Source of the DNA: Eledone cirrhosa | Lineage: Eukaryota | DNA length: 64,000 bases | Assembly (NCBI GenBank): GCA_964016885.1 | Contig: OZ024751.1 | Coordinates: forward strand, 32,550,001-32,614,000 | Direction: 5' to 3' | Shown: positions 4,538-59,526 of the stretch, in pieces | Layout: each line of letters begins with the position of its first letter | Numbering within the stretch: the first letter of the stretch is position 1 | Translations under genes and position numbers: made by a program | The notes under the pieces: model-generated | Databases searched by the model: none | What the model saw: only the letters and a program-made list of their open reading frames with translations | What the model was told of the DNA's origin: nothing

Positions 4538-4586
4538 TTCCTGATGATTTCTAATGAATGAAACAGTTCTAGTCCTGTAGAATCTC
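4534..4586 (+). ncRNA. Type I hammerhead ribozyme (family B)
   Basis: GAGAUUC-CUGAUGA-U UUC UAAU GAA U-GAAA-CAG UUCUAGUC CUG-UA-GAAUCUC: 7-bp stem I, intact core, predicted cut after GUA at 4579. Confidence 0.88.
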
Positions 4587-9515: not shown

Positions 9516-9849
<334 letters not shown>

Positions 9850-39565: not shown

Positions 39566-39831
39566 TATAAACGTTTGTATTTGTAAAGCCAAAACAATGC
39601 AGGTATGGACATAGAATAAAAATGCAAATGCAAAAGATATTGTTGACAATTAGTCTTTTACCTTAAATTTATTTAAATGTCCTAAATCTAAGGTAAAAGA
39701 CTAATTGTCAACAATATCTTTTGCATTTGCATTTTTATTCTATGTCCATACCTGCATTGTTTTGGCTTTACAAATACAAACGTTTATACCTCATTACACA
39801 AAGCTTCAAGTGAACTATAACTTCCTCCTTT

Positions 39832-39834: not shown

Positions 39835-39890
<56 letters not shown>

Positions 39891-39918
39891 TGGTAACACA
39901 ACAGTTAGTTCACCATAC

Positions 39919-39956
39919 CGAGAACAATTGTTTCACCCTAGCGGATCATCAGCTCG
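39919..39956 (-). ncRNA. Minimal type I hammerhead ribozyme
   Basis: CGAG-CUGAUGA-U CC GCUAG GG U-GAAA-CAAUUG-UU-CUCG; palindromic stem III ACAAUUGU. Confidence 0.82.
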
Positions 39957-40230
39957 TACTCACTACCTAACTCGTCCCATGGACTGAGTGCTCTACCACT
40001 ACGGATATTACCTTCCAGTGTTCTACCTCTCTCTCTATATATATATATATACCAAAGAATAATATGGTTCGTTGATTATTCAACGAATGCAATTTTACAA
40101 TAGATTAGAAGCACTCAAATCTTATATTTTGTCTCATGAAAACGTACTTAAACATCATTGTACCTTTGAAATATGTATAATAAAATATATATTTTGATTA
40201 TGAGAATATTTTTCATTTATTAATATCTTA

Positions 40231-40307
<77 letters not shown>

Positions 40308-40361
40308 GAGAAGAAAGAGGATTACTGCGTGGTTACACATGGGTTACATATTATAAAATTA

Positions 40362-40463
40362 GTCCCTCGTCAGTGATTTGCCAACCATCATTGGTATTTC
40401 ATCGCATTAAAAATCATATACCTCAGGTTGGTGCGAGCAATAACTAAAAAAAGCTATTGGGAC
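40362..40463 (-). ncRNA. Candidate strand-permuted hammerhead ribozyme (G1 copy 1)
   Basis: GUCC-CAAUAGCU/AGUUAUUG-C-UCGCA-CCAACC-UGA-GGUA-UA-UGAUUU-UUAA-UGCGA-U-GAAA-UACC-AAUGAU-GGUUGG-C-AAAUCA-CUGACGA-G-GGAC. Confidence 0.7.
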
Positions 40464-40871
40464 AAGTGAGTCGCGTAAGGCGAGTGAGACAAGTAAAAAA
40501 CATAGAAGGATAAAAGCAAACAGAAGATAGGGAAAAAACAAGCAACATGGTTATCCGGTCAGCATAAGCTGGGTGAATTTCATGAGTGAGATGTGAGAAA
40601 GTAAGAAAGAACCCCACTACCAACGAAACGGGAGGAAGTGAGAAGGGGAGAAACAGAGAGTGAGTGAGTGGAAGTACGAGGAAGATGTCAGCCGAGAGAA
40701 TGTGTAACTGACAGAGGGGGCGAAAGAAGGTAAGAGAAACAGAGAGAACGGGGGAGCAGTAAGAGAGAAAGAGAGAAACAGACAATCGCAGCCGAGGTAA
40801 ATATGTATAAAAAACATGAGAAGAAAGAGGATTACTGCGTGGTTGCACATGGGTTACATATTATAAAATTA

Positions 40872-40973
40872 GTCCCTCGTCAGTGATTTGCCAACCATCA
40901 TTGGTATTTGATCGCATTAAAAATCATATACCTCAGGTTGGTGCGAGCAATAACTAAAAAAAGGTATTGGGAC
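40872..40973 (-). ncRNA. Candidate strand-permuted hammerhead (G1 copy 2, GAAA mutated to CAAA)
   Basis: Tandem copy of 40362-40463 with a core substitution. Confidence 0.55.
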
Positions 40974-40995
40974 AATGAGTCGCGTAAAGCGAGTG

Positions 40996-41026
<31 letters not shown>

Positions 41027-41047
41027 CATACATATACATTTATATAC

Positions 41048-41164
<117 letters not shown>

Positions 41165-49744: not shown

Positions 49745-49794
<50 letters not shown>

Positions 49795-49858
49795 TTCTTC
49801 CTCACTTTCTGTTGCTTCACCATTTTGTTTGTTTACCCTCGCGTCCCCTTTATTTACG

Positions 49859-49962
49859 TGTCCCAACGACTTTTTTTAGCCGTTGCTCGCACCAACCGGA
49901 GGTATATGGTCTTTAAAGCGATGAAATGCCTATGATAGTTGGAAGATCACTGATGAAGGACA
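49859..49962 (+). ncRNA. Candidate strand-permuted hammerhead ribozyme (G2 copy 1)
   Basis: UGUCC-CAACGACU/AGCCGUUG-C-UCGC-A-CCAACC-GGA-GGUA-UA-UGGUCUU-UAAA-GCGA-U-GAAA-UGCC-UAUGAU-AGUUGG-AAGAUCA-CUGAUGA-A-GGACA. Confidence 0.7.
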
Positions 49963-50473
49963 AACTTTTTTTATATGTAACCCATTTGCAACTCCGCAGC
50001 GCCCTTATTATCATATTTACACATATTTTTTTCCTCTGCTGCTACACCGTCTTTTTCGTTCTATGTATCTTTACCCTTTCTAGCAGTCTCTCTCTCTGTT
50101 AGCCTCTTCCTCACCCTTCACTCACTCATTCTCTGTCACTACCTCTCCTCCTCCTCTTTCTTCCCGTTTGACCTGTGAGTAATTCTTTTCTCTCACATTC
50201 TCGGCCAAGCTGGTCGGAATTTTTTCTCTCTCGTCTACGATTTCACAGAACTTATGTTTACCGAATTCGCAGACCAGACCCCTTCTTCCTCCCGTTAGAC
50301 CTGTGCGAAATTCCTTCCTTGCTCACATTTCAACCAGGTTTGATGGTCTTTATTCTCTCGTTCACGATTTCACCGAACTTAAATTCATAGAAATCTGGGA
50401 CTTGTTTCCTTCTTCCTCATTTTCTGTTGCTTCACCATTTTGTTTGTTTACCCTCGCGTGCCCTTTATTTACG

Positions 50474-50576
50474 TGTCCCAACGACTTTTTTTAACCGTTG
50501 CTCGCACCAACCGGAGGTATATGGTCTTTAAAGCGATGAAATGATATGATAGTTGGAAGATCACTGATGAAGGACA
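50474..50576 (+). ncRNA. Candidate strand-permuted hammerhead (G2 copy 2, stem III damaged)
   Basis: Tandem copy; UGCC after GAAA changed to UGA. Confidence 0.55.
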
Positions 50577-50623
50577 AACCTTTTTCATATGTAACCCATT
50601 TGCAACTCCGCAGCGCCCTTATT

Positions 50624-50734
<111 letters not shown>

Positions 50735-51092: not shown

Positions 51093-51142
<50 letters not shown>

Positions 51143-51146
<4 letters not shown>

Positions 51147-51532
51147 ATAAACGTGCTGCGTGGTTGCAAATGGGTTCGCCTTTTTTCTCTCTCTCGTCTA
51201 TGATTTCACAGAACTTATGTTCATCGAATTCACAGACTAGATTCCTTCTTCCTCCCGTTAGACCTGTACGGAATTCCTTCCTTGCTCACATTCCAACCAG
51301 ATTTGATGGTCTTTATTCTCTCTCGTTCAAGATTTCACCGAACTTGTATTCATGGAAATTTGGGACTTGACTCGTTCTTCCTCACTTTTCGTTGCTTCAC
51401 CATCTTTGTTTGTTTACACTCTCGTGTCCCCTTTATTTACGTGTCCCAAAGACTCTTTTTAGCCGTTGCTCGCACCAACCGGAGGTATATGGTCTTTAAA
51501 GCGATGAAATACCAATGATGGTTGGAAGATCA
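51143..51532. mobile_element. Family G fold-back-type insertion (minus 3' end 51143-51176 plus arm ending just before CUGAUGA)
   Basis: gctgcgtggttgcaaatgggtt is the reverse complement of the G 3' end; plus arm matches 50221-50563. Confidence 0.8.
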
Positions 51533-58947: not shown

Positions 58948-59074
58948 GTTATTACAAATTATTGGAAGGGCTTAAGCCTCAAAGGCCCCCTTAGCGCCGG
59001 AAGACTTGTAGTAGCCCTCAAATAAAATATTATTCTATACATACATACGTACGTCTATATACACATACATACAT

Positions 59075-59526
59075 ACATCCGTAGAAAAGATAGCCCCGAT
59101 AATAAACACATTAAAAGCAACAGCAATGTGGAAGACATACATATACATAATATGAAAGAGTACTGGTGGAATGTTCCAGTAAAAACCCCAATAAAATGCA
59201 GACATAACAGACCAGATATTATGATATGGGACAGGGAAAAGAAGGGATTCACAGTAGTGGAAGTTAGCTGTCCAGCAGAAGCCAATATAATATCAAAGAT
59301 TAGCGAAAAGGAGATTATTTATGCAGAACTGATGAGAAATCTGCAGATACTCCACCCTGATTACACCTTCAGATTTATTCCTGTGATTATTGGGGCACTG
59401 AGATATGTTAGTAACTGCCTCAATACAAATCTTGAGAAGCTGGGCTTCACAGGAACAGAAAGAACACAACTAGTTAGGAAATTACAAGTACAATCCATTA
59501 ATGGAACAGCAGACATATCTACCTAG
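59075..59526 (+). pseudogene. 3' fragment of a non-LTR retrotransposon ORF: restriction-like endonuclease (R4/Dong-like)
   Basis: NRPDIMIWD...VVEVSCP...EKEIIY..L...IPVIIGAL matches the RLE PD-(D/E)xK domain; 5'-truncated next to (TACA)n. Confidence 0.85.

Follow-up and report, generated by a model that had tools for sequence, protein, structure and literature searches.

Family G, a non-coding repeat of Eledone cirrhosa with a predicted rearranged hammerhead ribozyme and the insertion footprint of Penelope-like elements

The stretch of DNA analysed here (64,000 nucleotides from Eledone cirrhosa, hereafter the window) carries insertions of a repeat family, G, that we read with moderate confidence as a non-coding parasite of Penelope-like elements (PLEs), in which each unit bears a predicted hammerhead ribozyme of rearranged order and which would be recopied into (TA)n tracts from an RNA circle. 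As far as its sequence tells, family G acts like a non-LTR retrozyme but with a different ribozyme, and this predicted ribozyme is in turn ordered like the type-SGC hammerheads but lacks a direct stem II.

Partial tandems of a non-coding monomer

The first locus, G1, reads on the minus strand, a point on which the preliminary description was silent. It spans 696 bp (40301..40996), or 1.36 units of a 510-bp monomer, and it is truncated at its 5' end, where a (TA)n-rich tract is found (40997..41137), while its fixed 3' end abuts the (TA)n target tract at 40235..40300. The second locus, G2, is a member of a young subfamily and lies in (TA)n on the plus strand (49793..50630); it again amounts to 1.36 units, here of a 615-bp monomer. 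The repeated part is 97.3% identical over 187 nt in G1 and 96.9% identical over 225 nt in G2, and high identity between the two loci is confined to the block made up of the ribozyme and the tail (79-82% over 144 nt). There is no credible ORF in either, the longest Met-started frame having 77 aa and the longest stop-free frame, of low complexity, 138 aa. The earlier picture of non-coding 510/615-bp partial tandems of about 1.35 units, flanked by (TA)n and possessing a common downstream block, is thus borne out. The GC content of the G monomers is 42%, below the 45% used as a criterion for retrozymes. Within the G2 monomer, a direct repeat of about 130 nt (50158-50418; 72% alike) suggests that its greater length arose partly through internal duplication.

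Two ribozyme motifs are present at each locus, as had been proposed, but one of the two is damaged in both G1 and G2. The 3'-unit motif of G1 (40362..40463, minus strand) is predicted to be intact and consists, in this order, of splint D, hairpin P0, splint E, helix X1 with a kink, the site block, GAAA (40400-40397) and CUGACGA (40373-40367); its H17, the predicted cut nucleotide in all of these motifs, is an A at 40417. In the 5'-unit motif of G1 (40872..40973, minus strand; H17 at 40927), a C takes the place of G12 at 40910. On the plus strand, the 5'-unit motif of G2 (49860..49961) is predicted to be intact, with an A as H17 at 49906, and stem III of the 3'-unit motif (50475..50575; H17 at 50521) is damaged by the loss of 1 nt and by substitutions. 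The AUA triplet previously put forward as the cleavage site does coincide with the predicted cut, but with neither locus bearing two intact motifs, the envisaged release of 510- or 615-nt monomers is unlikely, and G1 and G2 themselves probably release none.

Downstream of its last ribozyme, G2 displays two CATAT sites. Site B (50586..50590, plus strand) is the second fixed end of the family, that of tail-less and inverted arms; it is followed by a 40-nt tail (50591..50630) that closes with site A (50626-50630), the main fixed 3' end. A third, truncated copy of the G2 type (51129..51532) has two arms: a short inverted one consisting of tail (51129-51176, minus strand), and a forward one (51183-51532, plus strand), with H17 at 51489, that stops short of CUGANGA.

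Abundance and integrity in the genome

Across the 3.0 Gb of chromosome-scale contigs searched, a 34-nt core pattern has 11,997 exact matches, as against 2 in a reversed control, and 21-mers of the G2 and G1 types occur 6,102 and 5,388 times, respectively, with controls at 0. The best-scoring G2 copies are 96-98% identical, and full-length G1 matches 81-92%. At loci picked by the pattern, core and stems are intact in 128 of 169 arms, and both ribozymes are intact in 17 of the 25 unbiased tandem pairs lying outside the window loci. Of 34 tandem pairs on the same strand, 32 are spaced by 488-637 nt, and the remaining two show double spacings. The monomers are 66-68% pyrimidine; when folded as circles they are 38-47% paired, with z-scores against 40 shuffles each of -0.4 for G1 and -3.3 for G2.

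A hammerhead core in SGC order with a split stem II

All core elements of a hammerhead are present in family G, and they follow one another as site (NUH), GAAA and CUGANGA. To judge from sequence, this order is that of type SGC, a non-circular permutation, and not that of a type I hammerhead. The arrangement described above for G1 is that of the family as a whole, with a kink of 3 nt in X1 and CUGANGA as the general form of the last block. Stem II does not form as a direct helix; instead, the strand that follows CUGANGA pairs with splint D, and the strand that precedes GAAA pairs with splint E, leaving 10.1-11.1 as the sole direct stem II pair. Among 105 in-register arms, drawn from 171 distinct G instances, this pair is formed in 100 (A-U 60, G-U 26, U-A 13, G-C 1), and H17 is A in 81, C in 22, U in 1 and G in 1. 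The preliminary assignment to the hammerheads of known metazoan retrozymes therefore did not hold, the core being of SGC order with a split stem II, and an Rfam search of the whole window and of both loci found no hammerhead. Readings of the motif as type I, type II or twister were ruled out, for its pairings fit the SGC order alone.

In 19 subfamily representatives, 96.1% of the cells in stems I, III, X1 and IIb are paired, and 10 of the 20 pairs have changed on both sides (three of six in stem I and two of five in stem III); none of 500 shuffles scored as high, and slid-register controls gave 30-47%. For splint IIa, hairpin P0 and the lone 10.1-11.1 pair taken together, pairing reaches 93.8%, and compensation is seen in 5 of 11 pairs. 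Relatedness among the representatives is not taken into account by the shuffle control, so more weight rests on the independent families H and M, which are unrelated to G in sequence and keep, by eye, the same helices with other sequences; their patterns have 266 (H) and 130 (M) matches, with a control of 0 for each. Of 150 pattern matches from the own genome, 115 form stems I and III, as against none of the 80 chance matches tested among 118 stretches found in a metagenome. Against dinucleotide shuffles, a descriptor of the rearranged core was matched in 0 of 3000 for G1 and 1 of 3000 for G2, and the core pattern has 3 matches within the window versus 0 in 100 shuffles. When the G1 motif is folded to minimum energy, III, X1, P0 and IIa emerge without help; the splint here takes up part of CUGACGAG by pairing, a possible inactive state. 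No helix linking the distal sides of stems I and II was identified in G, and the splint together with the I-to-IIb linker may stand in for it. The kink in the stem III extension is made of a bulge and G-A pairs in G and M, and of Watson-Crick pairs in H.

The same ribozyme architecture, with other sequence, is seen in families H (L111-L148), J/K (L149-L167) and M (L309-L338); family H has a perfect four-way junction and family M a canonical G10.1-C11.1 pair.

Does the motif cleave? The pattern of conservation makes it likely that it does so at the predicted site. It could instead be a conserved fold bound by a protein (the RT or a kink-turn protein) that cleaves poorly or not at all on its own, which would turn G into an ordinary non-autonomous PLE. 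Such a role would sit well with a stem II reduced to one pair or replaced by a four-way junction, forms for which no published test was found, as well as with the box C/D-like kink, noted by eye, in the stem III extension of G and M, and with the 85% of arms that read through the site. In addition, in the available part of a recent report, one of nine predicted retrozyme dimers, from Xenopus, cleaved and the other eight failed to do so (bioRxiv 10.64898/2026.07.22.740005). What this explanation does not account for is that the catalytic residues (CUGANGA, GAAA, U16.1-A15.1 and an H17 other than G) are fixed while all of the helices vary, a constancy that spans four families and several phyla, and that natural type-SGC hammerheads do cleave, according to the accessible text of Eckert et al. 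(2023; PMC10085705). The absence of kink G-A pairs in family H further implies that a kink-turn protein would not be a universal partner. We thus consider protein binding without efficient cleavage quite improbable, and retain self-cleavage as the preferred reading.

The ends of the insertions carry a Penelope-like footprint

Mapping of copy boundaries throughout the genome, which the preliminary description had called for, revealed fixed 3' ends at CATAT, variable 5' ends and inverted arms. Among de-duplicated top-match loci, 24 of 25 G1 and 28 of 28 G2 loci share the fixed 3' end, and a TA tract lies at the 3' end in 23 of the 25 and in 25 of the 28; the 5' ends are scattered, the longest arrays have 3.2 units, and of 11 inverted G2 arms, 9 terminate at site B. 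This set is biased toward the phase of the query; in the unbiased, pattern-picked set, the 95 G2-type arms divide into 38 that terminate at site B, 32 that terminate at site A, 2 that stop in between and 23 that continue, and site A is the end of 55 of 72 G1-type arms. The two sites, both CATAT, are 40 nt apart, and 7 of 9 distinct two-armed insertions of the unbiased set join an A arm and a B arm head to head. Two such ends, 40-66 nt apart and in (TA)n, also mark the autonomous PLE families found here, which form the same kind of partial tandems. Because the two fixed ends, the tandems and the inverted arms match both the published descriptions of PLEs and the autonomous PLEs present here, mobilisation of G by PLE machinery, as suggested earlier, is well supported and highly probable.

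The same anatomy bears on the proposal that G is merely an LTR or the UTR of a coding element, or that its tandems are local DNA duplications, an outcome that the preliminary description had named as its own refutation. It is true that the motif terminates coding Naiads, a group of PLEs, in other species. However, no coding sequence belonging to the element is found upstream of the examined G, H, J/K and M motifs, and fixed 3' ends combined with variable 5' ends and with inverted arms at a second fixed site are a misfit with LTRs and with unequal crossing-over alike. This proposal is largely refuted and can be given very little credence.

A template continuous across the predicted cut

The predicted cut lies upstream of site A by 115 nt in G1 and by 109 nt in G2, so that a linear monomer primed at site A would yield no more than 109-115 nt. 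Since 142 of 167 arms read through the cut, the template appears to have been continuous at this point. Indels at the cut are absent from all 205 read-through arms: the canonical sequence is kept in 190, and the other 15 deviate, on reading, by substitutions or by deletions away from the cut. All 46 within-locus pairs are of a single subfamily. Identity within arrays is no higher than identity to the nearest other locus, and its use as a sign of copying from one molecule was given up.

What kind of template would behave in this way? A circle is favoured as the simplest one, as it would explain read-through free of indels and would also regenerate the multi-unit arrays that truncation erodes; the template was probably continuous across the cut and circular. 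Arrays might nonetheless be produced with no circle, either from uncleaved multi-unit transcripts or by jumps of the RT between the ends of cleaved linear monomers, which is how PLE pseudo-LTRs are usually explained. An uncleaved multimer or precise template jumps would account for read-through of the cut just as well as a circle does, and the similar partial tandems of the autonomous PLEs point in the same direction. Furthermore, in 62 tail-anchored arms, 5' breaks occur at 0.0052, 0.0046 and 0.0079 per nt on the site-A side, down to the cut, and at 0.0021, 0.0015 and 0.0016 per nt beyond (upstream of) it, i.e. about three-fold less often; a similar excess downstream of the cut is seen in families H and M. 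In one two-armed insertion (L193), both arms even begin at the cut. Cleaved linear templates may be reflected in this suggestive excess, but stalling of the RT in the fold or a greater commonness of short insertions would explain it equally well. End-to-end template jumps are, moreover, often imprecise, as is established for R2, and this is at odds with the absence of indels at the cut, just as the absence of pairs mixing subfamilies is. Uncleaved transcripts alone would only shorten arrays, yet multi-unit arrays persist in many subfamilies. An origin of the arrays without circles is, on these grounds, unlikely, and a circular template is what we assume below. In about 4 of 149 arms the 5' end falls right at the cut, but these cases are confounded by TA microhomology, and no pile-up is claimed from them.

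On this reading, the life cycle of family G probably begins with transcription through loci bearing two intact motifs, whereupon the cleavage predicted to occur after NUA or NUC, as the conserved core and the covariation suggest, would free monomers of about 470-640 nt. By analogy with known retrozymes, a host ligase would close these monomers into circles. A PLE endonuclease would next nick a (TA)n tract, allowing the 3' end of the target to pair with the internal CAUAU and, as the observed fixed ends suggest, to prime reverse transcription 109-115 nt downstream of the cut. The RT would then cross the cut junction, often for more than one round, and would leave arrays that lack the 5' part and range from 0.1 to over 3 units, in line with the read-through observed. 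Finally, the opposite side of the break would often prime at site B, 40 nt upstream, generating an inverted arm without a tail, which is the geometry seen in the insertions.

Comparison with retrozymes and type-SGC hammerheads

In the accessible portions of the two accounts at hand (PMC7229834; bioRxiv 10.64898/2026.07.22.740005), metazoan non-LTR retrozymes resemble family G in having non-coding tandem monomers with one hammerhead per unit, a GC content within whose range the value for G falls, thousands of dispersed copies and a proposed mobilisation by PLEs. They differ from it in their type I hammerheads, in place of which G has a non-circular SGC core with a split stem II, and in the size of their monomers, given there as 150-450 bp (PMC7229834), whereas those of G measure about 490-640 nt, are pyrimidine-rich and appear to pair only weakly with themselves. 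Retrozyme circles are described as 'highly self-paired', unlike the G1 circle, which is no more folded than its shuffles; and circles have been shown for known retrozymes, whereas for G they are proposed from the structure of its insertions.

Non-circularly permuted hammerheads, for their part, had previously come only from metatranscriptome or metagenome contigs of unknown origin, with one doubtful bacterial case, and the available text of Eckert et al. (2023; PMC10085705) reports that type SGC (HRIMA-1 and variants) cleaves and that none was found in genomes of known organisms. Type-SGC hammerheads and G have in common the block order, all core nucleotides, covarying stems I and III, and a short linker that connects stem I with the GAAA block (PMC10085705). 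Stem II, by contrast, is a direct helix in type SGC as presented there, but a single pair in the G types and M and a four-way junction in H and in Naiads, in all of which it is completed by an upstream splint with a hairpin; further differences are the extension of stem III via the 3-nt kink and the presence of G as roughly 12,000 DNA copies in an animal genome. In literature drawn mostly from outside subscription journals, no published account of an SGC-order core combined with a retrozyme was found, and the term 'type-SGC' turned up in a single paper.

If active, a split-stem-II form that is abundant in an animal genome would widen the known tolerance of the hammerhead core, and descriptor searches that require a stem II hairpin would miss whole classes of ribozymes. 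The thousands of insertions also make up a record of how a PLE enzyme primes, namely within TA repeats and at two CAUAU sites separated by 40 nt, and of template continuity across the cut. The question of circular intermediates in the mobility of PLEs and retrozymes hence becomes testable with an RNA of 110 nt and a circle of 615 nt.

A link to Naiads and the search for a helper

In the parts of Craig et al. (2021; PMC8557442) that were accessible, PLEs are described as forming partial tandems accompanied by a truncated copy in inverted orientation, with a tail of 30-40 bp at one of the ends, and Naiads as targeting (TA)n and lacking canonical hammerheads, with 10 'HHR_core' and 8 'HHR_half_core' cases tabulated. 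Naiads and non-autonomous PLEs such as MRC1 resemble G in their (TA)n targeting and partial tandems, in the inverted 5'-truncated arm and in the tail, 40 nt long in G, on one end; they differ in that G has no ORF and in that, although the fold is common to both, the sequences are not alignable (PMC8557442). In the accessible part of the 54 records belonging to that paper, the site-GAAA-CUGANGA fold was recognised by eye at the 3' ends of nine Naiad consensi, namely those of Octopus bimaculoides, O. vulgaris, Euprymna, three Acropora (names by record order) and three more. Most of the nine have the splinted junction, one of the three further records has a stem I of just 2 bp, and two of the nine carry the label 'HHR_half_core'. 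Descent of the G motif from the 3' end of a Naiad PLE is accordingly rated as likely, and this offers an answer to the apparent absence in Naiads of the ribozyme carried by other PLEs. More tentatively, the splinted four-strand SGC hammerhead may be active and may be the 'missing' ribozyme of many Naiads across animal phyla, captured in this genome by a family of RNA circles with some 12,000 motif copies that has outlived the Naiads and is pasted by another PLE enzyme priming twice per circle; taken as a whole, this scenario is about as likely to fail as to hold, if not slightly more so.

Elsewhere among the same records (PMC8557442), the hammerhead cores of the Naiads Smim, Nbra-2 and Nbra-3 are circularly permuted and have long stems, and oyster Naiads carry a structured 3' motif of another kind, which suggests that the type of ribozyme varies inside the Naiad clade.

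Which enzyme could mobilise G today? The preliminary description had proposed looking for an autonomous PLE with a common 3' end, and none was found, only decayed Naiads and PLEs with C-terminal endonucleases whose 3' ends are different. The Naiads found here (L399-L406, L526-L531) have the CxC linker and the GHVITGDL, KGTKFRE and DKA motifs and resemble the published octopus Naiads, a likeness that, together with clusters of zinc-finger genes, points to an octopod cephalopod, but all are decayed (67-86% alike, with many stops and no recognisable motif at their 3' ends). They thus cannot be the helper of the 98%-identical young G2, in keeping with the available description of cephalopod Naiads as long inactive (PMC8557442). 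Genome searches with Naiad motif patterns gave 0 matches for the endonuclease, 1 match versus 1 control for the RT and 9 matches versus 3 controls for the linker, six of the nine being decayed Naiads. Protein searches with a local endonuclease returned no N-terminal-endonuclease protein among the 2 and the 150 matches listed, and in a GIY-YIG family search, in which the best 150 of 10,596 candidates were scored, the long ORFs inspected had C-terminal endonucleases. The 3' ends of five C-terminal-endonuclease PLE families of this genome differ from that of G. Intact young PLEs of this kind are nevertheless present, target (TA)n and could act in trans on G.

These young PLEs comprise family A (L091, L092, L096, L100), L093, family B (L094) and family C (L097), all with long ORFs, for instance of 938 aa in L091, whose copies are 97% alike, and of 1,096 aa in L093. 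They end in (TA)n, at pairs of fixed sites that are separated by 66, about 57 and 40 nt, and the fold of family A is type I-like except that its first core block deviates. The tail of family C is 40 nt long, like that of G2, but the likeness in sequence is weak: it was equalled in 14 of 1000 shuffles for one G2-type tail and in 709 of 1000 for another, and it is not robust. Family C (which also includes L103 and L109) is a candidate helper, as is any young Naiad that may have escaped the searches. A supposed chimera of a G tail and a PLE at L094 was dismissed, since its ORF proved to be a (TA)n pseudo-ORF. Alignment comparison shows ORFs like those of Hydra-clade PLEs at L147, L152, L159 and L342.

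Other elements in the window and the genome

Next to G1, a fragment of another repeat (39890-40030, minus strand) contains a core in canonical order (CUGAUGA, a short stem II, GAAAC and a palindromic stem III) and ends at a (TA)n tract (39835-39888); it is probably a type I retrozyme or the end of a PLE. Further type I-like hammerhead cores are located at 4541 (plus), 9690 (plus), 9685 (minus) and 49389 (minus), those at 9685 and 9690 standing head to head in a manner resembling a two-armed insertion. A long inverted repeat at 39573-39790 looks, by eye, like the 3' end of PLE family E (L101; CUGAAGA core). On the plus strand, an open frame at 59026-59526 resembles by eye the restriction-like endonuclease end of an R2/R4-type LINE, with no Pfam match, and a longer relative of it is carried by locus L346.

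On contig C27 (G000:C27, 2.74-2.84 Mb and 12.52 Mb), 7-kb repeats that had been considered as long elements turned out to be duplications of zinc-finger genes. Each of these tandem C2H2 genes (L339-L343) has an old copy of the family-M ribozyme about 0.15-1.1 kb downstream on the same strand, and these copies are probably passengers of gene duplication. Their site block is mostly lost, but is nearly intact in L341 and L342.
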